From the NCBI GenBank assembly GCA_963796685.1, contig CAWCMR010000009.1, positions 32,001 through 96,000 of the forward strand: a DNA stretch of 64,000 nt. The letters run 5' to 3'. This DNA is from an uncultured delta proteobacterium. Lineage in GTDB: Bacteria; Myxococcota_A; Polyangia; Fen-1088. This document shows, one piece after another, positions 3,227 through 38,056 of the stretch. Below the pieces are notes generated by a model that had not been told where the DNA came from, did not search any database, and worked only from the letters and a program-made list of their open reading frames with translations. The translations under genes were made by a program, and so were the position numbers. Each line of letters begins with the position of its first letter. The first letter of the stretch is position 1.

Positions 3227-4977
3227 GGCCGTGCCTCACCCACACAACGCCCGACACCCGCATCACGCACCTTCCGTGACCTGCTTGCCGAGAACCCTCC
3301 TTCATGGAGGCAGCCGCATGCGCAAAACCTGCGACCGGCTACACCTATGCCCGCCGGGAGCCGGAGAAGACCGCGCTCTTCCAGGTGCTCCAGCAGCACC
3401 TGCTCACCTTCGAGCAAGAGTGGACCGACAAGTCCGACGGCCGCACGCTGCCCAGCTTCGTCACCGACGAGCTACACGACTTTCTAGGGTGCGGAATCTT
3501 GGCGCGAGGCTTCGCACAATTCTTGTGCAAAACCTGCCACGAGCGGTACGTTGTGGCCTGGAGCTGTAAGGGTCGTGGCTTCTGTCCGAGCTGCGGAGGC
3601 AGACGCATGAACGCGGGTGCGCTGACTCTGGTCGATCACGTGCTGCCCGAAGTGCCCATCCGACAATTCGTGCTCACCCTGCCTTTCCCGCTGAGATTTC
3701 CCTTGGCCTTCGACGGGAAATTGCTGGGCCAAGTCCTGCGCATCTTCATCGACACCGTCGCGTCCAACTATCGCAAGCGCCTGGCAGATCGGGGCATCCC
3801 CGACGGCGAGTGCGGCGCCGTCACGGTCATCCAGCGCGCCAACAGCGACCTGCGTCTCTCACCGCATTTTCACGTTCTCCAGCTCGATGGAGCGTACGCC
3901 CCTGGGCCCGACGGCGGTGCGCCCATCTTCCACCCGGCTCCGGAACTTACCCAAGAGGACATCCTTGCCATCGTCGCGCGCGCCAGTAAGCGCATCCTCC
4001 GCTTCCTCCAACGTCGCGGGGTCATCACCCTGGTGACCGCGCCAGGCGACGGCGAGATCACCGTCGTCACCGACGAGACCATCGGCGAGAAGGATCCGCT
4101 CCTGGCTCGCTTGTTGGCCGCCGCCACCGCTGGCGCCTCGCCTGCCGGCCCTGCGCACAAGCGGGCTCCCGTGCGCATCGTGCTCGACCCTGGCGCCACG
4201 CCCGTGGCCAAGGGCAAACTATGCGGCCAGCAAGCAGGCTTCAACCTGCATGCTCAAACCAAAGTCGCCGCCAACGACAAGAAGGGTCGCGAAAACCTGT
4301 GCAAGTACATCTTGCGCCCGCCTCTCGCCAACGACCGCCTCAAGATCCTCGACGACAAAACCGTCAGGCTCGACTTCAAGAAGCCCTGGTCGGATGGCAC
4401 ATCGTCGGTCGACCTTGCGCCGCTCGCCCTCATTGCGAGGCTAGCCGCGATCATCCCTCCTCCTCGTCGCCATGTCGTCAGATATTCGGGGGTTATCTCC
4501 TCGCACAGCTCTCTCCGCAGCCAGGTCGTCCCCGTCCCCGCCGTGGCGGCACCCGAGGAAAAGGACAAGCCTTCACTGCCGCTCTCGCACTATATTTCTT
4601 GGAGCCAGCTCCTCAAAAAGACATTCGAGATCGACACCGTCTGCCCTCGCTGCAAGAGCCCGCTGCATCTCATCGCCATGATCGAGACCGAGGACACCAT
4701 CAAGAAGATTCTCAAAGCCATGGGACTGCCTACCGAGGCGCCCAAACTCCGGCCTGCACGACCGCCGCCCTCGCAATCTGGTGGCGAGGGCGGAGACTGG
4801 CTGAACTGACGGCACGTCGACCAGGGCGGGTTGGAGTAGACTGCCCTGCGTGCTCGAGAAAGACCCCGTCAGGCCCCAGAAACCCGGTCACGTGCGCTGC
4901 GCAGACGTGATCGGGGCCGACCTGACGCGTCCTGGCAGGGTTCTCAGACGCTCAAAAACCCCCTTCGAATCGCCTAT
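3227..4977 (+). mobile_element. IS91/ISCR element copy B (left end at GGCC inferred; right end is oriIS)
   Basis: About 1.75 kb repeated unit; oriIS-like TTCGAATCGCCTAT followed by GGCC; no terminal IRs or target duplication. Confidence 0.88.
3304..4809 (+). CDS. IS91/ISCR rolling-circle (HUH) transposase, 501 aa
   Basis: Zn-binding CxxC..SCKGRGFCPSC, HUH motif PHFH, KYILRPP (single catalytic Tyr, ISCR-like), RYSG, C-terminal CPRC. Confidence 0.93.
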   Translation: MEAAACAKPATGYTYARREPEKTALFQVLQQHLLTFEQEWTDKSDGRTLPSFVTDELHDFLGCGILARGFAQFLCKTCHERYVVAWSCKGRGFCPSCGGRRMNAGALTLVDHVLPEVPIRQFVLTLPFPLRFPLAFDGKLLGQVLRIFIDTVASNYRKRLADRGIPDGECGAVTVIQRANSDLRLSPHFHVLQLDGAYAPGPDGGAPIFHPAPELTQEDILAIVARASKRILRFLQRRGVITLVTAPGDGEITVVTDETIGEKDPLLARLLAAATAGASPAGPAHKRAPVRIVLDPGATPVAKGKLCGQQAGFNLHAQTKVAANDKKGRENLCKYILRPPLANDRLKILDDKTVRLDFKKPWSDGTSSVDLAPLALIARLAAIIPPPRRHVVRYSGVISSHSSLRSQVVPVPAVAAPEEKDKPSLPLSHYISWSQLLKKTFEIDTVCPRCKSPLHLIAMIETEDTIKKILKAMGLPTEAPKLRPARPPPSQSGGEGGDWLN

Positions 4978-5319
4978 GGCCATACGCACAGCTTGCAGCG
5001 ACTCTTCACCATCCTTGAGCCCCGTCTGAAGTTGGTTACCCCTGACGAAGAGATTCCGGAGGATGTTCGATCTTCGGTATTCCAGCTTCACAATATGGAT
5101 CCCACCGGAGAGGTGTTTCGATATCCACGAAGAAGGGGCAAGGATGAGCCAATCTTCAATACGCAGACCTGGTTTGATATCGGTCGGATCGTTGAAAGGC
5201 TCGGACAATCGATTCGGTTCCTCTCCGATGGCATCGGAGGATGGTTGGCCTACGAAATAGGCTCGATGAACGACTACATCTCCTTCCTCGAATCTGAGAG
5301 CTACGACTGGAACGAGTAG
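4978..5319 (+). pseudogene. 5'-truncated HEPN-like protein
   Basis: Frame begins at the GGCC junction: GHTHSL...HNMDPTGEVFRYP, resembling the HEPN C-terminal half. Confidence 0.5.
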
Positions 5320-5448
5320 CCCGGACGTATTCCGCCCACGCAGAGAGAGGGATTCCGCGGGCGTGCATTTCGTAAGCTGTCGTCTTACTGTCGTGGTGTG
5401 ACTGGCCGGACAAAGCGAAGCTCTGAGACAGCAAAGGAGGCTACCCAC

Positions 5449-6126
5449 ATGAACGCTGTCATCGCTTCAAACATCCGCCAGCACCGAGAGACCCTTACAT
5501 GGACCCAAGAGCAGCTGGCACAGGCCGCCAGCATCAGCCCGCGAACTGTTCAGCGCGCCGAGGAAGGCCGAGGCTTGAGCGCAGAGACCCTTCTCGCCAT
5601 CGCAGGGGCGATGAATATCTCTGTCGAGGCGCTTCGGTTCGATTTCGATTCCGCCATGGCAACCTTGCTGGGCGTCCGACTAGAGGAAGTCACCGAGGAA
5701 CTCATCGCGAACAAGCTCGCGGAGGCCCAGGCCAAATACCTGGTCATTCCACTTGCAGTCGTTCGCACGGCGGAGAACCTTCGGCCTCTGTTTACGGCCG
5801 ACGCCATGTGTTTCGAGAGTCGGACCGGGCTACCTACAGCGGAGCCCATCGTCGCCGCACTGGAAACCGATCTCCGCGACTATCTCGATATTGGCTCCGA
5901 TCTGAATCCCGTCCAACGTCACGAGGCCGCGGTGTCTGTCCTAGAGATCGTCGGGCGCCTCAACACCCTTGGCGTCGCGGTATCCCTGGGAATGCGACGC
6001 CAGCGCCTTCGTTTTGGCGAAGGCGCCCCCGCGCTGTGGACAATCGCATACTTCGTGCTGACGCCAGCATCCGAACCATCCCGCTGCGCGCTGGTCGAGA
6101 AGAACGTGTCTTTCCAGCTAGCCTAG
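5449..6126 (+). CDS. XRE-family HTH regulator with C-terminal extension
   Basis: IRQHRETLTWTQEQLAQAASISPRTVQRAEEG; RBS AAGGAGG. Confidence 0.85.
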   Translation: MNAVIASNIRQHRETLTWTQEQLAQAASISPRTVQRAEEGRGLSAETLLAIAGAMNISVEALRFDFDSAMATLLGVRLEEVTEELIANKLAEAQAKYLVIPLAVVRTAENLRPLFTADAMCFESRTGLPTAEPIVAALETDLRDYLDIGSDLNPVQRHEAAVSVLEIVGRLNTLGVAVSLGMRRQRLRFGEGAPALWTIAYFVLTPASEPSRCALVEKNVSFQLA

Positions 6127-6146
6127 TGCCGCGACGCCGGAGCGGC

Positions 6147-6893
6147 CTAGCGACCTCCTGGGAGTGAACGATTGGGACCGAACAGACTCATGCTGGGGAC
6201 GGCGGGCTTAGCTCCTTTGCGCTTCTTACGGGCCGGCGGAACTGACGAAAGCCGTGCTGGTATTGAACTGGTCTGTTCAGGAGTCAATGCAGCCCCCGTC
6301 GACTTCGCTGAGGGCTGCTGTGGGACAGCAGAAGACCGGGGCCTCCGCTTTCCCGTGATGGGCTGCTGTGGCGTGTACTCCGAGTGAAAGGGCGCGTCGA
6401 CCTTGATCTTGGCTTGGCGCAAAGTGGACTTCTTTCGCGAGTGATCTCCGTCGGCGGGATCATCGCCCCAGAAGGAATCATCATGGGTGTAGATCCTCGC
6501 GATTCCGGCCTGAATAATGGCATTGCAGCACGCCAGGCAGGGAAATTTTGTTACGTAAATCGTCGCCCCTTGAAGAGCAATTCCGACGCGAGCGGCGTTG
6601 TGGATTGCATTCTGCTCGGCGTGACAGATTAGGCGAAGCTTCTCGTCCGTGTTTGAGAGGAGTTTCGGGTCGTCGAAGACTTGACGTGCAAATCCGTTGA
6701 ACCCTGTGGAAAGGATTTGCTCGTCTCGAACGATCACAGCACCGACACGGCACTTTGGATCTTTGGACTTACGTCCGGCGGTCAATGCCATCTCCAACCA
6801 ATACTCGTCCCATCTATCAATGTAGGGCGCAACATCCACCGGAAGGACTGTCGTCACAACCTCAGGATTCGTCATAGCTTCACAGTTTGACAC
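6147..6893 (-). CDS. dCMP/deoxycytidylate deaminase-family protein with low-complexity basic tail
   Basis: SKDP..RVGAVIV, STGFNG, HAEQNAI, FPCLACC Zn-deaminase motifs. Confidence 0.9.
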   Translation of the reverse strand: MSNCEAMTNPEVVTTVLPVDVAPYIDRWDEYWLEMALTAGRKSKDPKCRVGAVIVRDEQILSTGFNGFARQVFDDPKLLSNTDEKLRLICHAEQNAIHNAARVGIALQGATIYVTKFPCLACCNAIIQAGIARIYTHDDSFWGDDPADGDHSRKKSTLRQAKIKVDAPFHSEYTPQQPITGKRRPRSSAVPQQPSAKSTGAALTPEQTSSIPARLSSVPPARKKRKGAKPAVPSMSLFGPNRSLPGGR

Positions 6894-6980
6894 GATGCCG
6901 GTTGCGCTGCCAGTCAGTCCAGCTAATAGGAACCTCTATGCCTACATGAGCAACGCGCACCGACACCATCCCCGCAGCCG

Positions 6981-7460
6981 TCACCGCCCACCTTCCCCGC
7001 CACACAGCCGCAGCCATCGCGCCTCAACCATCGCCGTTGTCGCACTCGGGGCGACGTGGGTGTACCGCTCGGTAGACGCGCTATCGCTGTGCCCGAGCAG
7101 CGTCCCGATGACCTTCTGGCCGGCGCCCATGACGGCGTAGCTGCTGCCGGCGGTGTGGCGGGCGCCGTGGCTCGTGATGCGGCGGACGCCGGCCTCTTTC
7201 GCGAGGTCGCGATACCAGCGATTCAAAACCTTGTTCGAGAGCACGCCGCCACGAGGATCCGGGAAGAGAAGCTGGTCCTCGGTCCGCAGCATGAACCGCT
7301 GCAACTCGTCGGCCAGCGCTCGCGGGATGACCTGAAATCTGGTGCGCTTGTTCTTCGGCGTGGACACGATCGTCCTCGCCTGGGAGCGACGAATCCAGAG
7401 CCCTGGTGTTTGAAGATCGAGGTCTACCTTCGTCAACGCCCTCACCTCGCTGAGGCGCAC
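6981..7460 (-). pseudogene. Tyrosine recombinase C-terminal fragment
   Basis: RLSEV, TPKN, HGARH, LLGH, TERYTH; N-terminus missing. Confidence 0.8.
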
Positions 7461-7594
7461 TGCCCGGCATACTGCGCGCTTGGAGAAAATGTCACGCCGA
7501 TGTGGACGATTTCCCGACGGGCCAAGTCCACGATCACGAAGCAGCAACGCACAGAGCTTGATTAAATTGGCTCGATTGACAAGACGGTCAAGTA

Positions 7595-8668
7595 ATGCTA
7601 TTTAGTCAAGCGATGGAAGCGCGGCGTGAGCATGACCGTCTGGCAGGGAAGGTGCCCGACATGCTGGCCGAGCTCCTTGGGGTCGATCACGCCGCACTGG
7701 AAGTGCAGGCCGAACCCGCGTGCGGGGCCGCTCTGGTCGTCACCGCGGGCCCGACCTTCGTCGTCGAGGTGAAGTGGTCCACCAGCGCCGGCGCGCTGGC
7801 CGCGACCGCGGAACAGGCCAAGGAGCATGCTTCCCGCCTTCGTCGCAAAACGGTTGTCCCGCTCGTGGCAGTCCCCTTCATGGGTGAAGTCGGCCGCAAG
7901 ACCTGTGAGGATGCAGGCGTCGCATGGATCGACCTGTCCGGCAACGCGCGTATCATCGCCCCGGGCATCCGCGTGATCGTCGAGGGGAAGCCCAACCGGT
8001 TCAAGACCGCCGGGCGGCCACGGAACCTGTTCGCCCCCAAGAGCTCGCGCATCATCCGCTGGTTGCTGATCAACGCCGGGAAGTACCTCACCCAACGCGA
8101 GATCACCCGCGCCACCGGCCTCGACGAAGGCATGGTCAGTCGTTTGGTCGCGCGACTAACGGCGGACGAGTACCTGATTCGCGACGAGCAGGGCGGCGTA
8201 CGTGCAAAATCGCCTGAGCTCTTGCTGGACGCCTGGCGCGAGGCGGACGAGTTCTCGAAGCACACCGTGCATCGCGGGCATGTCGCAGCTCGCTCGGGAG
8301 ACCTGCTCCTACGCCTTGTCGTCGACACCCTCACCGAGCGCGGACACGAGCACGCGGCCACGGGACTTGCCGCTGCCTGGGCGATGACCCGTTTTGCCTC
8401 GTTCCGCATCACGACTGTCTACCTGCCGACGGATCCATCGCCCGAGCTGATCGAACAGCTCGGCTTCCGAGCGGATGAGCGTGGGGCGAACCTGTGGTTG
8501 GTCGTCCCGAGCGACCCGGGCGTGTTCCAGGGCGCCGTCGACAAGGATGGCATCAGGTGCGTCCATCCCGTCCAGGTTTACGTCGATCTCAAGGCTCACC
8601 CTGAGCGGGCCAGCGAAGCCGCAGAGCGCCTGCGAGCCGAGCTGCTGACCTGGAGGCACGATGGCTGA
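7595..8668 (+). CDS. AbiEi-like (type IV TA antitoxin-type) protein
   Basis: WIDLSGNA, HTH TQREI, LLDAW, C-terminal PVQVYVDL..ERASEAAERL; overlaps the next gene. Confidence 0.75.
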   Translation: MLFSQAMEARREHDRLAGKVPDMLAELLGVDHAALEVQAEPACGAALVVTAGPTFVVEVKWSTSAGALAATAEQAKEHASRLRRKTVVPLVAVPFMGEVGRKTCEDAGVAWIDLSGNARIIAPGIRVIVEGKPNRFKTAGRPRNLFAPKSSRIIRWLLINAGKYLTQREITRATGLDEGMVSRLVARLTADEYLIRDEQGGVRAKSPELLLDAWREADEFSKHTVHRGHVAARSGDLLLRLVVDTLTERGHEHAATGLAAAWAMTRFASFRITTVYLPTDPSPELIEQLGFRADERGANLWLVVPSDPGVFQGAVDKDGIRCVHPVQVYVDLKAHPERASEAAERLRAELLTWRHDG

Positions 8669-31877: not shown

Positions 31878-32132
31878 GGCCACAAGCTCTACGGCCCCAC
31901 CGGCATCGGCGTGCTTTATGGCAAGCAGCGCCTGCTGGAGGCCATGCCGCCCTGGCAGGGCGGTGGCGACATGATCATGTCCGTGACCTTCGAGCGGACC
32001 ACCTACGCGCCGCCGCCGGCCAAATTCGAGGCCGGCACGCCCGACATCAGCGGTGCCATCGCTCTCGCCACCGCCATCGACTACGTCGAGTCGTTCGGCA
32101 TGGCCGCCATCGAACGCTACGAGGCCGAGCTG
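31878..32132 (+). pseudogene. sufS: Internal fragment of cysteine desulfurase SufS
   Basis: GHKLYGPTGIGVLYGK..MPPWQGGGDMI..KFEAGTP; begins at a GGCC. Confidence 0.9.
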
Positions 32133-32885: not shown

Positions 32886-34356
32886 TTAGAGAGAGCGTAG
32901 AGGGCGGAGGAGGGCGCGGAGGGCGGAGAAGCTCGGGAAGGTTTTGCCGACCGTGGCCGTGCCTCACCCACACAACGCCCGACACCCGCATCACGCACCT
33001 TCCGTGACCTGCTTGCCGAGAACCCTCCTTCATGGAGGCAGCCGCATGCGCAAAACCTGCGACCGGCTACACCTATGCCCGCCGGGAGCCGGAGAAGACC
33101 GCGCTCTTCCAGGTGCTCCAGCAGCACCTGCTCACCTTCGAGCAAGAGTGGACCGACAAGTCCGACGGCCGCACGCTGCCCAGCTTCGTCACCGACGAGC
33201 TACACGACTTTCTAGGGTGCGGAATCTTGGCGCGAGGCTTCGCACAATTCTTGTGCAAAACCTGCCACGAGCGGTACGTTGTGGCCTGGAGCTGTAAGGG
33301 TCGTGGCTTCTGTCCGAGCTGCGGAGGCAGACGCATGAACGCGGGTGCGCTGACTCTGGTCGATCACGTGCTGCCCGAAGTGCCCATCCGACAATTCGTG
33401 CTCACCCTGCCTTTCCCGCTGAGATTTCCCTTGGCTTTCGACGGGAAATTGCTGGGCCAAGTCCTGCGCATCTTCATCGACACCGTCGCGTCCAACTATC
33501 GCAAGCGCCTGGCAGATCGGGGCATCCCCGACGGCGAGTGCGGCGCCGTCACGGTCATCCAGCGCGCCAACAGCGACCTGCGTCTCTCACCGCATTTTCA
33601 CGTTCTCCAGCTCGATGGAGCGTACGCCCCTGGGCCCGACGGCGGTGCGCCCATCTTCCACCCGGCTCCGGAACTTACCCAAGAGGACATCCTTGCCATC
33701 GTCGCGCGCGCCAGTAAGCGCATCCTCCGCTTCCTCCAACGTCGCGGGGTCATCACCCTGGTGACCGCGCCAGGCGACGGCGAGATCACCGTCGTCACCG
33801 ACGAGACCATCGGCGAGAAGGATCCGCTCCTGGCTCGCTTGTTGGCCGCCGCCACCGCTGGCGCCTCGCCTGCCGGCCCTGCGCACAAGCGGGCTCCCGT
33901 GCGCATCGTGCTCGACCCTGGCGCCACGCCCGTGGCCAAGGGCAAACTATGCGGCCAGCAAGCAGGCTTCAACCTGCATGCTCAAACCAAAGTCGCCGCC
34001 AACGACAAGAAGGGTCGCGAAAACCTGTGCAAGTACATCTTGCGCCCGCCTCTCGCCAATGACCGCCTCAAGATCCTCGACGACAAAACCGTCAGGCTCG
34101 ACTTCAAGAAGCCCTGGTCGGATGGCACATCGTCGGTCGACCTTGCGCCGCTCGCCCTCATTGCGAGGCTAGCCGCGATCATCCCTCCTCCTCGTCGCCA
34201 TGTCGTCAGATATTCGGGGGTTATCTCCTCGCACAGCTCTCTCCGCAGCCAGGTCGTCCCCGTCCCCGCCGTGGCGGCACCCGAGGAAAAGGACAAGCCT
34301 TCACTGCCGCTCTCGCACTATATTTCTTGGAGCCAGCTCCTCAAAAAGACATTCGA

Positions 34357-34646
34357 TCACCCTATCAACTACAGCTCACACCGAGGATCTGACAGGTCCA
34401 GTGCGGGTCACCCACCCGTTCCACCCGAAGTTCGGGCAGGAGCTCGACGTGATTGTTCGCCGGTACAGCTGGGGTGAAGATCGGGTCTTCTACCGCGAGC
34501 CAGCCGGAAACCTAGCGTCGCTGCCCTCTCGCTGGACGAGTGTCCTGCCCGAGGATCTGTTTGTTGTCGTGGCGGCCGGCCGGTCTCGGTTTCGGGTGCG
34601 GGATTTGATCGATCTCACCGCACTGGTGGGGAGGCTTCGCAGGTGA
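34357..34646 (+). CDS. DUF5372/Y4bD-like small protein, 3' part (start codon lies at the far end of the element, 37689)
   Basis: VRVTHPFHP..RRYSWGEDRVFY..SLPSRWT..GRSRFRVRDL; no ATG in this segment. Confidence 0.7.
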
Positions 34647-34865
34647 GAGCGACGCGCGTAGCGGCGGAAGTGTGTAAGGCCATTTTTGCCGTCTGTGTAA
34701 TTGTGATTATGCCGTCCCGTGGTCAGGGTGGCACTTCAAATGGCACGATGAGTGTGCATTTAAGCGTCTGCATCCACTGCCCTGCCTGGCGATTTTGGGT
34801 TGACATCTCTACTTGCAACGGCGTTAATAGAGTTACACTACCTTCCGGTCACCCTGGAGACGCCC

Positions 34866-35333
34866 ATGAGCAAGACCAAACCCTCCGACCCCAAGCTCGC
34901 AGCCCTGCGACAGCATGGCTGCCTCAATCCCCATCCGGACAAGGTCGCCGATCCGATCTTCGCCTCCTCCGACTTCTTCGACCCCCGCGATCTGGTCCAG
35001 GTCAAGTACGAGATGGTGCGGCGTGTGCGCGTGGACGGACAGCCTGTCAGCCACAGCGCGGCCGCGTACGGATTCTCACGTCCCGCGTTCTATCAAGCGC
35101 AAACCGTTCTCGACCGCGGCGGCCTGGCGGCTCTGGTGCCGAGAAAGCCAGGACCGCGACGGTCGCACAAGCTGAGCACGGACGTGATGGAGTTTCTACA
35201 GCGAGAGCGGTCCACGGATTCGTCGCTGCGCCCGCCGGACTTGGCACGCCTGGTTCTGGAGCGTTTCGGCCGCAAGGTTCATCCTCGCAGCGTCGAACGG
35301 GCGCTCACACGACAGGAAAAAAAACGGCGGTGA
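34866..35333 (+). CDS. HTH DNA-binding protein of the recombinase element
   Basis: LNPHP..FFDPRDLVQVKYEMVR..GFSRPAFY..KPGPR..HKL. Confidence 0.8.
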   Translation: MSKTKPSDPKLAALRQHGCLNPHPDKVADPIFASSDFFDPRDLVQVKYEMVRRVRVDGQPVSHSAAAYGFSRPAFYQAQTVLDRGGLAALVPRKPGPRRSHKLSTDVMEFLQRERSTDSSLRPPDLARLVLERFGRKVHPRSVERALTRQEKKRR

Positions 35334-35635
35334 TCGTTTCGCCCGCGGCAACGGGTGGCAGCGACACCGCCATCGCGGAGTACGAAGAGTTGCGCTGTCG
35401 CGTTCTCGCGGGAGCTGGCGCACGCGACTGCGACCTTGGACAGCTGTTTCTTCTCCGCGAAGGGATCGTCGCCTGGATAGCCCACGGAACGACTTCTACG
35501 GCGCCGGCGAATCTCACGGCAGATCGGGACAGTGACGTGACAGCACCGGTCCTTTCCGACGAGATCCACGCCGGCATGGTGCGTGTGTTGGCCAACATGG
35601 CCTTGGCAGTAGGACGAAGGGAGATGACGACATGA
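35330..35635 (+). CDS. Small hypothetical protein of the recombinase element
   Basis: GTGA and ATGA coupling to both neighbours; YEELR..GIVAW. Confidence 0.6.
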   Translation: MIVSPAATGGSDTAIAEYEELRCRVLAGAGARDCDLGQLFLLREGIVAWIAHGTTSTAPANLTADRDSDVTAPVLSDEIHAGMVRVLANMALAVGRREMTT

Positions 35636-37692
35636 GATCCGAAGGACATCAGAAAGTCACCACCAGCCACCTCAAGCGGGATGCCTATCTGTACGTCAGA
35701 CAATCGACAGTCCGGCAGGTCATTGAGAATACCGAGAGCACGCAGCGGCAGTATGCTCTCCGCCAGCGTGCCGTTGCTTTGGGCTGGCCAAACGATCGGG
35801 TCATCGTCATCGACACAGATCTCGGCCAGTCAGGAGCTTCCGCGGTCGACCGCGTGGGTTTCCAGAAGCTCGTGGCCGAGGTCGGGATGGGGCACGCTGG
35901 TATCGTGCTTGGCTTGGAGGTCTCTCGACTGGCGCGCAATTCCACTGACTGGCACCGATTGCTCGAGATCTGCGCACTGACCGACACCTTGATTCTCGAC
36001 GAGGATGGCATCTACGACCCCGCGCACTTCAACGACCGGCTGTTGCTCGGGCTCAAGGGAACGATGAGTGAAGCCGAGTTGCACGTCTTGCGAGCTCGCC
36101 TGCGCGGCGGCATCATCAACAAGGCGCGCCGGGGCGAATTGCATTGTCGCCTACCTGTTGGCTTCGTCTACGACGGTGGCGGGCGCGTCGTCCTTGATCC
36201 GGACAAGCAAGTGCAAGAGAGCGTGCGATTGCTGTTCGCGACTTTCGCACGAACAGGGGCAGCGCATGCCACGCTCAAGTACTTCCGACAAGAGAAGCTG
36301 CTATTCCCCACACGTCTGGGTGCCGGGGCGAGCAAGGGTGAGCTGGCTTGGACGCCGCTCAGCCTGGCACGCACTGCCAGCATCCTGCACAACCCGTGGT
36401 ATGCGGGCGCGTACGCATTCGGTAGAAACCGCTGGCGAAAAAGACCGGACGGAAGCAACTCCTGCCGACGAGAACGCTTACCGCGCGCCGAGTGGCTTGC
36501 TCTGCTTCGGGATGCCCACCCCGCGTACATCTCATGGCAAGAGTACGAGCGCATCGACCAGCGCTTGCAGGCCAGTGCCAAGTCCCTCGGCTGGGAGCGA
36601 GGCCGGGAATCTCCTCGTGAGGGTCCAGCCCTGTTGCAAGGACGCACGATCTGCGGACTCTGCGGCTGCCGAATGGGCGTTCACTACAACACTCGACGCT
36701 CAGGTCAGCTCATTCCCAACTATGTGTGCTCCGGACACGGCCGTCTCCTTGGCGACGGCTCATGCCAGAGCATTCTGGGAACGGAAATCGACGCAGCCGT
36801 CAGCAAGTTGCTGGTCGAGGCCGTGACACCGATGGCGCTCGAAATGACCCTCGCCATCCAGCAGGAGATCGCGGCCCGCCTCGACGAGGCCGATCGGCTG
36901 CGCCACCGCCAAGTCGAGCGAGCCCAGTACGAGGCTGACCACGCCCGCCGTCGCTACATGCAGGTGGATGGCGCCAACCGGTTGGTCGCAGATTCACTGG
37001 AAGCAGAGTGGAACACCAAGCTGCGTGCGCTTTCCAAGGCCCAGGAGGAATACCTGCGCCAGCACGAGGCCGACCGACTCACCGTCGGCAAGGATGAGCG
37101 CCAGCGCATCCTCGCTCTCGTCACGGATTTCCCCGCCGTCTGGCGTGACCCCAATACGCCCCAGCGCGAGCGCAAGCGCATACTGGCGCTTCTGATCGAA
37201 GACATCACCCTGATCAAGCGGCGCGAAATCACCGTGAAGATCCGCTTCCGCGGCGGTGCAACCACTACCTTGACACTGCCTCGTCCACTCACGCCCCAGC
37301 AACTGCGTGCCACACACCCCGAAGTCCGTCAGCAGATCGACGCCCTCCTCGACGAGTACACCAACGCTCAGGTCGCCAACCAACTTAACAAGCAACAGAT
37401 GCGCACCGGCACTGGCGAGTCCTTCAATGCCGTGAGCGTCCAGTGGGTACGCTTCTCGGCCAAGCTCAAGAGTCTCAAGGAACGACTCATCGAAGCTGGC
37501 TGGCTGACAAGTAAGCAGGTCGCTGCCCTGCTCGGCGTCAGCCTTTCGACCGTCAGTAGTTTGCGCAACAAGGGGCGCCTCAAGGGACGTATATGCAGCG
37601 ACAAAGGCGAGTGGCTATACTGGCCATCCGACATCCCCACAAGTCCTTCACCAACACCAACTGTTACATCCACTGCGAGAGGTGCAATATGA
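35632..37692 (+). CDS. Large serine recombinase (resolvase, recombinase, Zn-ribbon, C-terminal HTH)
   Basis: AYLYVRQST, SRLARN, CGLCG..YVC, coiled coil. Confidence 0.92.
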   Translation: MRSEGHQKVTTSHLKRDAYLYVRQSTVRQVIENTESTQRQYALRQRAVALGWPNDRVIVIDTDLGQSGASAVDRVGFQKLVAEVGMGHAGIVLGLEVSRLARNSTDWHRLLEICALTDTLILDEDGIYDPAHFNDRLLLGLKGTMSEAELHVLRARLRGGIINKARRGELHCRLPVGFVYDGGGRVVLDPDKQVQESVRLLFATFARTGAAHATLKYFRQEKLLFPTRLGAGASKGELAWTPLSLARTASILHNPWYAGAYAFGRNRWRKRPDGSNSCRRERLPRAEWLALLRDAHPAYISWQEYERIDQRLQASAKSLGWERGRESPREGPALLQGRTICGLCGCRMGVHYNTRRSGQLIPNYVCSGHGRLLGDGSCQSILGTEIDAAVSKLLVEAVTPMALEMTLAIQQEIAARLDEADRLRHRQVERAQYEADHARRRYMQVDGANRLVADSLEAEWNTKLRALSKAQEEYLRQHEADRLTVGKDERQRILALVTDFPAVWRDPNTPQRERKRILALLIEDITLIKRREITVKIRFRGGATTTLTLPRPLTPQQLRATHPEVRQQIDALLDEYTNAQVANQLNKQQMRTGTGESFNAVSVQWVRFSAKLKSLKERLIEAGWLTSKQVAALLGVSLSTVSSLRNKGRLKGRICSDKGEWLYWPSDIPTSPSPTPTVTSTARGAI

Positions 37693-38056
37693 AAAGCGAT
37701 CCTTCGAGATCGACACCGTCTGCCCTCGCTGCAAGAGCCCGCTGCATCTCATCGCCATGATCGAGACCGAGGACACCATCAAGAAGATTCTCAAAGCCAT
37801 GGGACTGCCTACCGAGGCGCCCAAACTCCGGCCTGCACGACCGCCGCCCTCGCAATCTGGTGGCGAGGGCGGAGACTGGCTGAACTGACGGCACGTCGAC
37901 CAGGGCGGGTTGGAGTAGACTGCCCTGCGTGCTCGAGAAAGACCCCGCCAGGCCCCAGAAACCCGGTCACGTGCGCTGCGCAGACGTGATCGGGGCCGAC
38001 CTAACGCGTCCCGGCAGGGTTCTCAGACGCTCAAAAACCCCCTTCGAATCGCCTAT

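Follow-up and report, generated by a model that had tools for sequence, protein, structure and literature searches.

The joined ends of an excised mobile element can create an expression signal that is absent when the element is integrated, as in the circle-junction promoters of insertion sequences (IS) and in tnpX of Tn4451. In archaeal elements of the SSV type, the split integrase arrangement acts like a directionality control and has been called exclusive to archaea (PMC8371274). In the mycobacteriophage BPs, integration exchanges the 3' end of the repressor gene, the two forms being a stable protein of 103 aa and a tagged, degraded protein of 136 aa (PMC4557955). Elements with a large serine recombinase (LSR), such as SPbeta in spsM and gin in gerE, reside inside host genes, which are restored by precise excision (PMC4191935, PMC5595907). 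Regarding the recombination directionality factors (RDFs) of LSRs, the verified ones are unrelated in fold, and all are predicted to bind where the second DNA-binding domain (DBD2) of the recombinase meets its coiled-coil (PMC12286644). The present study concerns a window of 64,000 nucleotides from an uncultured delta proteobacterium (positions 32,001 to 96,000 of contig CAWCMR010000009.1, assembly GCA_963796685.1), in which a 3351-bp LSR element carries its attachment (att) site inside one of its own genes, a small gene of the DUF5372 family. The locus as a whole is best explained as a split gene whose product would be a partner of the LSR made from the joined ends, a reading to which we give a probability of roughly 0.6.

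The element occupies 34352-37707 of the window and interrupts a transposase gene of the IS91 family. Its genes, all on the forward (+) strand, follow the order DUF5372, helix-turn-helix (HTH) gene, small open reading frame (ORF3) and LSR. At the extreme left lies the body of the DUF5372 gene (34356-34646, +), the 3' "exon" of the split gene, which matches PF17342 with an E value of 2.2e-24 (85.7 bits against a cut-off of 25) over the complete profile (1-78 of 78), from frame residue 18 to 95; the domain spans 34407-34640 and is followed by the stop codon TGA at 34644-34646. No in-frame ATG lies ahead of this domain within the element. The 5' "exon" (37679-37704, +) is found in the sequence of the opposite end, consisting of a Shine-Dalgarno-like GAGGTG (37679-37684), an ATG at 37689 that overlaps the recombinase stop codon (37690-37692) as ATGA, and four further codons up to the core TT (37703-37704). 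When both ends were joined by a script, an in-frame product beginning with MKSDPS-ITLSTTAHTEDLTGPVRVTHPFHP... resulted, uninterrupted until the stop codon of DUF5372. The preliminary description of this DNA had read these features in the same manner, namely a left-end ORF without ATG, GAGGTG with an ATG overlapping the recombinase stop, and an in-frame product of the joined ends, and all of them stand. Two further points of that description stand in part: the core TTCGA is present at both ends of this copy, and family-wide it shrinks to TT; the translational coupling to the recombinase agrees with the stop overlap seen here, and the strict RTGA overlap (R being A or G) occurs in 19 of 38 unique junctions.

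The DUF5372 frame is also open leftwards into the flank, up to an ATG at 34200, and a stop codon is present in the same flank frame of the sister insertion L035. A fusion of DUF5372 to the host gene was considered and rejected, as the IS91 frame enters the element in another frame and stops at 34477; in other clades it is also ruled out by the position of the element on the strand opposite to the target gene. In the integrated state, the ATG at 37689 opens an ORF of 23 codons, which extends to 37760 and reads the host transposase gene out of its frame; this peptide is presumably meaningless and made whenever the operon is read.

The layout is conserved among relatives. A scan of one genome per species returned 596 candidate stretches, 487 of which encode a relative, and 79 distinct loci were kept, coming from many phyla (Myxococcota-type metagenome-assembled genomes (MAGs), Acidobacteriota, Actinomycetota, Planctomycetota, Paraburkholderia and others). 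These relatives keep the four-gene order in 3.3-3.4 kb, a few reaching 3.9 kb, and DUF5372 is always located at the extreme left end in the same orientation, with 18 invariant columns in an alignment of 30 sequences. Moreover, an exhaustive profile-free protein search found 1166 clusters (50% identity) at E <= 0.001 and 421 at E <= 1e-10. Among plasmids, 136 PLSDB records match, mostly from Sinorhizobium and Rhizobium, two examples being pNGR234a and the pSymA plasmid of S. meliloti 2011; the RefSeq annotation of pNGR234a names, in this order, a "DUF5372 family protein", a "helix-turn-helix domain-containing protein" and a "transposase".

The split gene was then followed through 81 loci (the window, L022 and L034-L112). 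Both ends are available in 55 of them, giving 42 unique junctions, 38 of which have TT on both sides; the rows of L052, L090 and L110, with wrongly detected ends, were set aside. After in silico joining, 37 of the 38 unique TT/TT pairs yield an in-frame ORF that spans the gene without a stop. The preliminary description had made its case depend on homologues yielding an in-frame ORF upon circularisation and on a conserved frame across the junction, and both are borne out by these pairs. The N-terminal extension is free of stops in frame 0 in all 38 junctions, compared to 2/38 and 10/38 in the control frames 1 and 2. In addition, the codon of the invariant arginine (R) in RVTHPFHP lies 51 nt from TT in 66 loci, 48 nt in one, 54 nt in five and 57 nt in seven, the exceptions being L055 (52 nt) and L052 (46 nt, its left end being cut by the contig start). 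Of the 80 left ends that can be measured, 79 therefore have linkers whose lengths differ only by whole codons. Family-wide counts of this kind exceed what chance would give. At the core, L044 has TA instead of TT at both ends, with its junction ORF in frame, and the left ends of L045 and L047 also read TA.

The start signals were searched in the 61 loci with a recombinase frame of at least 400 aa, with the 8-nt core motif close to the LSR stop codon as the sole anchor; 16 of these loci lack the motif at one mismatch or fewer, and several of them still show RTG at the same place by eye. Across 39 unique right arms, the three bases after the motif are ATG in 29 and GTG in 10, and TT follows 14 nt further on in every one. 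The GAGG at -24 to -21 of the right arm is conserved at 0.97, 0.97, 1.00 and 0.92, against 0.59, 0.41, 0.62 and 0.51 at the mirrored positions of the left arm (n = 37), and the RTG-AA that follows GAGG is also devoid of a mirror image there. As for the LSR gene, in the 38 unique junctions its stop overlaps as RTGA in 19, in 13 it passes through the motif in a different frame, its stop lying 8 nt further on, and it ends 11-41 nt ahead of the motif in 4, 2 being undetermined. Since the LSR gene reads the motif in different frames or ends outside it, recombinase coding does not explain the conservation of the motif. In two elements the right arm offers a neighbouring codon as well: L120 (S. meliloti 2011 pSymA, 4443-7760) reads GTG ATG before TT, where either of the adjacent in-frame codons could start the junction ORF, and L112 reads CTG ATG at the same place.

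Besides the reconstruction in silico, joined DNA occurs in metagenome assemblies. A scan with an attP pattern, which matches 20 of 37 in silico junctions, found six contigs among metagenome records of the Joint Genome Institute (JGI) and none among viral contigs. Three of the six (L113, L115 and L116) carry the 3' end of the LSR gene followed directly by a junction ORF of 119, 102 and 103 aa, respectively, matching Pfam DUF5372 at E values of 6e-27, 3e-26 and 3e-19, with the domain starting at residue 23-26. The remaining three (L114, L117 and L118) were rejected as junctions, being ordinary attR ends in IS91 genes with an attB half that resembles attP. Among proteins, the cluster representative P0085 (102 aa) begins with MKHAPS...; the N-termini of P0014, P0070, P0072 and P0161 are possibly variant junction forms and were left uncounted. 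Within the one-genome-per-species loci, no right-arm motif was seen directly upstream of the left ends checked, i.e. those with at least 30 upstream bases. For the circle postulated in the preliminary description, there are thus three contigs with the LSR directly before a full junction ORF, which may be tandem copies as well as circles and do not belong to this copy; excision of the latter we infer.

The position of DUF5372 relative to transcription points in the same direction. A script search found TTGACN between the DUF5372 and HTH genes in 40 of 62 unique intergenic regions, most of them with CATAAT or TATAAT 15-17 nt later. Because of this site, the DUF5372 body would be upstream of the likely operon promoter when the element is integrated. 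In the window, the -35-like hexamer TTGACA of the presumed promoter is at 34800-34805 (+), in the gap that separates the DUF5372 body from the HTH gene; its -10-like hexamer is weak, the TTGACA at 34800 was not listed by the promoter scan tool, and the promoter and terminator scan of the window gave nothing useful on the + strand.

Regarding the protein, the AlphaFold2 (AF2) model of DUF5372 (mean predicted local distance difference test (pLDDT) of 82.7) is a small five-stranded barrel followed by two C-terminal helices. A fold search gave no match at E <= 0.001, the best being SH3-like/KOW barrels of ribosomal protein eS4, PsaE and SH3b, and a profile search of solved structures gave chance-level matches only (E ~0.5). 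Its putative partner, the LSR (686 aa, 35632-37692, +), is intact in the integrated copy, as its ORF ends at 37692, ahead of the core TT. It has a Resolvase domain (Pfam E 3.9e-18, residues 18-169) whose R23, Q24 and S25, of the catalytic serine domain, are invariant in 18 relatives, followed by Recombinase (E 1.1e-13; DBD1) and Zn_ribbon_recom (E 2.3e-07; DBD2), and its AF2 model shows long paired helices at 384-443 and 450-484, after the ribbon strands, as a coiled-coil inserted in DBD2. Outside the standard layout of serine integrases, the LSR also bears a C-terminal DNA-binding domain of the HTH_17/excisionase-like type (residues 624-663, window 37501-37620; Pfam E 2e-07), with a weak match to TIGR01764 "excise".

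When LSR residues 315-600 were modelled with DUF5372, the complex scored 0.78, compared to 0.00 for the best of 3 controls, above a mark that was attained by 58 of the 80 solved complexes tried and by 2 of the 110 mismatched pairs; as our own alignments were used, these counts apply only roughly. At least 95% of contacts recur between runs, and the partner has a pLDDT of at least 81. The modelled interface on the LSR (340-345, 397-416, 483-521, 526 and 536-544) corresponds, in the AF2 model of the whole LSR, to the strands of the zinc ribbon together with the base of both long helices, i.e. the junction of DBD2 and coiled-coil. It is unlikely that the score reflects structures already known to the predictor, since DUF5372 has neither a solved relative nor a significant fold match. 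The model thus supports the binding of DUF5372 to the LSR at the site predicted for RDFs.

Taken as a mechanism, a small cargo-free, site-specific LSR element targets IS91-family transposase genes, inserting at a TT core within a stretch that is conserved among them, and its sister clades target rve-type and ISL3-type transposase genes. Its attP lies inside its own fourth gene: the right arm, where the LSR gene ends or has just ended, holds the ribosome-binding site, start and five codons, and the rest, a 17-codon linker plus the DUF5372 domain, begins in the left arm. When integrated, the internal promoter would drive HTH, ORF3 and LSR, leaving the DUF5372 body upstream and devoid of a conserved start. 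Once the ends are joined, in an excised circle or at the junction of a tandem pair, DUF5372 would become the last gene of the operon and be translated; the protein would then bind the LSR at the base of the coiled-coil, where DBD2 meets the coil. If DUF5372 is made only with joined ends, the LSR therefore meets it only in the excised or tandem state, and the preferred reaction would depend on the state of the element. Such expression would argue against the direction of a classical RDF; and because the circle has no replication gene, the useful effect would be that integration is favoured or re-excision blocked.

The grades of these steps differ. The anatomy, its retention throughout the family and the occurrence of joined forms in assemblies are shown, and the binding is modelled. 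Provided that the rest is right, a DUF5372 that favours attP x attB or blocks re-excision, in reverse of the classical RDF polarity, is put forward tentatively, at somewhat less than even odds. The complete picture, in which a phylum-spanning family has a reversed directionality (integration) factor that can be expressed only after excision, so that DNA topology sets the reaction (excision when the factor is missing, integration when it is present), together with a clade-wise parasitism of transposase families (IS91, rve-type and ISL3), is doubtful. The preliminary description had imagined a directionality, integration or replication cofactor made only from the circle; the modelled binding at the RDF site and the lack of a conserved internal start speak for it, and the favoured reaction is a matter of reasoning only.

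Several observations weigh against the split gene as read here. Frame conservation is obtained partly by construction, given that the symmetry of the att site dictates how far the start codon stands from the left-arm motif; only the linker beyond this motif tests coding, and its 48-, 54- and 57-nt variants represent perhaps four to six independent events. One locus, L055 from a Terriglobia MAG, is the sole one with an out-of-frame junction, and may be a decayed copy or a single-base assembly error. The N-terminal extension is poorly conserved as a protein and lies outside the modelled interface, seeming to be a mere carrier of the start signals, and the interface itself is a model and not a measurement. 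Of the 150 top-ranking cluster representatives, only one shows the exact junction N-terminus. The contigs with joined ends, three in number, are short and may come from tandem copies or assembly paths rather than circles, and the Logan contigs of four of 20 sequencing runs (X1, X2, X3 and the RNA run X9), compared with 34100-37950, contain no joint from 37704 back to 34352; contigs drop rare forms, so that absence is not implied. The RNA run X9 gave contigs of a ~94%-identical relative over 34364-35469, which show neither transcription nor start. An in-frame GTG at 34401, two codons ahead of the Pfam domain and with an AGG-containing sequence upstream, makes some translation of DUF5372 from the integrated state possible in this copy as a leaky start, and gene callers take such an internal GTG in many relatives. 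Only one of the 12 near-identical targets in its own genome is occupied, giving no sign of recent spread. Finally, under classical polarity a factor made only from the circle would hinder re-integration, and the proposed direction is unorthodox.

The last point leads to the strongest competing explanation, which keeps the split gene and returns to the classical polarity: DUF5372 would act as RDFs usually do, promoting attL x attR and inhibiting attP x attB. An initial, rare excision event, or a tandem copy, would supply it in trans to other integrated copies and keep circles free, resulting in excision bursts and not in a return to the chromosome. The modelled interface, being the one used by known RDFs, would suit this, as would the genomes with several copies (five places in G001 and three in G004). 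However, a circle that has no replication gene and blocks its own re-integration would be lost, and a single-copy element such as that of the window could never start excision unless the internal GTG leaks. We consider this explanation unlikely.

Less likely still is that DUF5372 is an ordinary gene of the integrated element with an internal start (GTG 34401 here), the open junction being a by-product of the att sequence and high G+C content. The invariant R is preceded, in the 62 unique left ends, by GTG in 19, TTC in 16, GTC in 13, GTT in 6, TTT in 6, GTA in 1 and ATC in 1. The 19 GTG codons favour an internal start, in agreement with the proteins of 81-88 aa predicted by gene callers, such as the 87-aa "DUF5372 family protein" of pNGR234a in RefSeq, and frame 2 of the extension is likewise devoid of stops in 10 of 38 junctions. 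Nevertheless, 32 of the 62 have no in-frame ATG, GTG or TTG from the left end to the domain, among them L022, a relative of 80% identity with GTT at this position, and the flank frames often have a stop just outside the element. The valine codon varies synonymously, indicating that GTG is not selected. The preliminary description had named a conserved internal start as the sign of its own failure, and no such start is seen in this set. Moreover, an internal start leaves aside that linker indels are all multiples of three save in one locus, that GAGG and RTG are conserved in the right arm alone, and that the gene body is upstream of the conserved promoter-like site.

The weakest explanation takes GAGGTG...RTG and the left-arm motif only as binding sites of the recombinase or the HTH protein and DUF5372 as a decaying or rarely used passenger whose junction ORF has no role, and it is hardly credible: the core TGCAGT mirrored in both arms is clearly an att feature and the positions at -26 and -33/-34 are symmetric too, whereas DUF5372 is intact and under clear purifying selection across phyla, as seen by its invariant columns and its 421 clusters, never leaves the extreme left end or its orientation, and has beside it a right-arm-only conservation that is exactly what a ribosome-binding site and a start codon need.

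Concerning the boundaries, the host gene has a 5' part at 33032-34351 (+) and a 3' part at 37705-37888 (+), and matches Pfam Y2_Tnp (E 8e-22) and Zn_Tnp_IS91 (E 2e-15). There are 12 near-identical copies of it on the same contig (C9), only one being interrupted, and the element is present as a single copy in its own genome. In the 11 identical empty sites, the left and right flanks abut with a 5-base overlap, and one contig of the DNA run X1 skips exactly 3351 bases, passing from 34351 to 37703. Empty and occupied sites differ by exactly the element, with no target duplication. Consequently, the restoration of the host transposase by excision, as anticipated in the preliminary description, agrees with these uninterrupted copies and with the X1 contig, in both of which the 5' and 3' parts are continuous. 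The 12 copies, all on the + strand, lie within ~131 kb (C9:7481-131000), six of them in the window (143-46980); such a dense one-way IS91 array is unusual and could reflect rolling-circle spread or an assembly effect.

Further insertions allow the core to be narrowed. Genomes of the same genus hold close copies of the element, five in G001 with 97-98% identity and others in three places of G004, and G010 has an 80%-identical copy; all of them are in the same place of IS91-like genes of differing sequence (...KxxF | xIDxxCPxC). As in insertion sequences, several copies with identical ends occur at different places, such as the five in G001, and no genes beyond those for movement are carried. 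In diverged insertions just TT(C) is common to both ends, and TT occupies the core position of all 39 unique right arms and of 74 among the 81 left ends, pointing to TT (34352-34353 and 37703-37704) as the probable crossover dinucleotide; the five bases TTCGA shared by both ends of this copy (34352-34356 and 37703-37707) constitute a likeness to att sites. The left end, attL (34352-34386, +), as delimited by sister insertions and empty sites, is composed of the core TT and the attP left arm with the motif ACTACAG at 34368-34374. Its right-arm counterpart, GTGCAAT (37682-37688), overlaps the 5' "exon" of the split gene. A TGCAGT-type motif is found in each arm, mirror-symmetric and 14 nt from TT, an arm symmetry that, judged from the sequence, has the look of a serine-integrase attP. 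When 37 unique elements are compared, both arms also show conservation 26 and 33/34 positions away from the core, at -26 and -33/-34 (window 34378-34386 and 37669-37678), which may be a further binding site, perhaps for the HTH_17 domain of the LSR or for the HTH protein.

Sister clades are found in other transposase genes, on the opposite strand, as seen by Pfam searches of ten flanking frames. The insertion occurs at the end of the rve integrase-core domain in L075, L082, L099 and L074, and in ISL3 transposases (DDE_Tnp_ISL3) in L064 and L083; two of the ten frames have only weak HTH or weak Phage_integrase matches and one is without match. The flanks of L056, L059 and L084 likewise belong to the sister clades placed, on the opposite strand, in transposase genes of other families. 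From these targets, the family appears to be specialised on transposase genes of other insertion sequences.

The two remaining genes precede the LSR, whose Pfam domains (Resolvase, Recombinase, Zn_ribbon_recom and HTH_17) were described above. The HTH gene (155 aa, 34866-35333, +; Pfam HTH_28/HTH_32/HTH_29) is present in all clades of the family and resembles, below the NCBIfam cut-off, the N-terminal parts of IS481 and IS630 transposases. ORF3 (101 aa, 35330-35635, +) was located from the sequence; its GTG overlaps the HTH stop as GTGA and its stop overlaps the recombinase start, so that the three genes are linked by GTGA/ATGA overlaps. It has no match in the Pfam, NCBIfam or PHROG families, and relatives have an ORF of ~90-105 aa at the same place, the homologue in L119 (pNGR234a, 5406-5672) being named "transposase" by RefSeq.

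These results give DUF5372 a concrete and testable role as a serine-recombinase partner, and suggest that its database entries probably carry wrong start codons. If true, no earlier case would be known, for a serine recombinase in bacteria, of an element whose att site is located in a gene of its own that is switched off by integration; if the factor favours integration, the textbook rule, by which the recombinase alone integrates and the recombinase plus RDF excises, would be reversed. In addition, the family would offer many natural recombinase/partner pairs with base-defined att sites, for use in genome engineering and as recorders of DNA state, and the insertion into, and restoration of, transposase genes of other insertion sequences would represent a hardly described layer of mobile-element conflict. 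Cultured carriers allow bench tests, namely Sinorhizobium meliloti 2011 (pSymA), S. fredii NGR234, Rhodococcus jostii RHA1 and Paraburkholderia nodosa.

A literature search, mostly without subscription journals, found nothing under "DUF5372" and no account of the element family or of an RDF gene cut by attP, and the supplementary RDF lists of PMC12286644 could hold such proteins. The closest parallels each share some features with this locus. DUF5372 is like the RDFs of LSRs (phiC31 gp3, Bxb1 gp47 and SPbeta SprB) in being a small partner modelled at the DBD2/coiled-coil junction, with an unrelated fold (PMC12286644). However, classical RDFs are made in the integrated state, where they trigger excision, whereas DUF5372 should appear only after the ends join. 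At the excised junctions of insertion sequences and Tn4451, the halves of a promoter, -35 and -10, are brought together to drive the transposase; in the present element, what is assembled is instead the coding sequence of a recombinase partner. Compared to the LSR elements of spore-formers, which restore a host developmental gene at a set time, the interrupted genes here are transposases of other insertion sequences.

The integration-dependent immunity of BPs and its relatives is similar in that attP is within a regulatory gene, that integrated and free forms encode different products and that the state of the DNA sets regulation. Both states of BPs make a protein, its 3' end being exchanged, whereas integration of the present element takes away the 5' end, including the ribosome-binding site and start codon, so that no protein should be made in that state. 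Furthermore, BPs is a phage with an operator-binding repressor, in contrast to a 3.35-kb IS-like unit whose protein is modelled on the recombinase; the element has no phage genes, and its split-gene product has no match to repressor families. A further likeness in design is to the SSV-type tyrosine integrases (SSV1, pTN3 and pT26-2), where the recombination site is in the element's own gene, which is broken by integration and whole only in the circle. In a suicidal integrase, attP lies inside the integrase gene, and in this element the LSR frame ends before the core. The split gene of the SSV type is thus a tyrosine integrase in archaea, whereas in the present family the serine recombinase remains intact and a small partner gene is split, in bacteria of many phyla.

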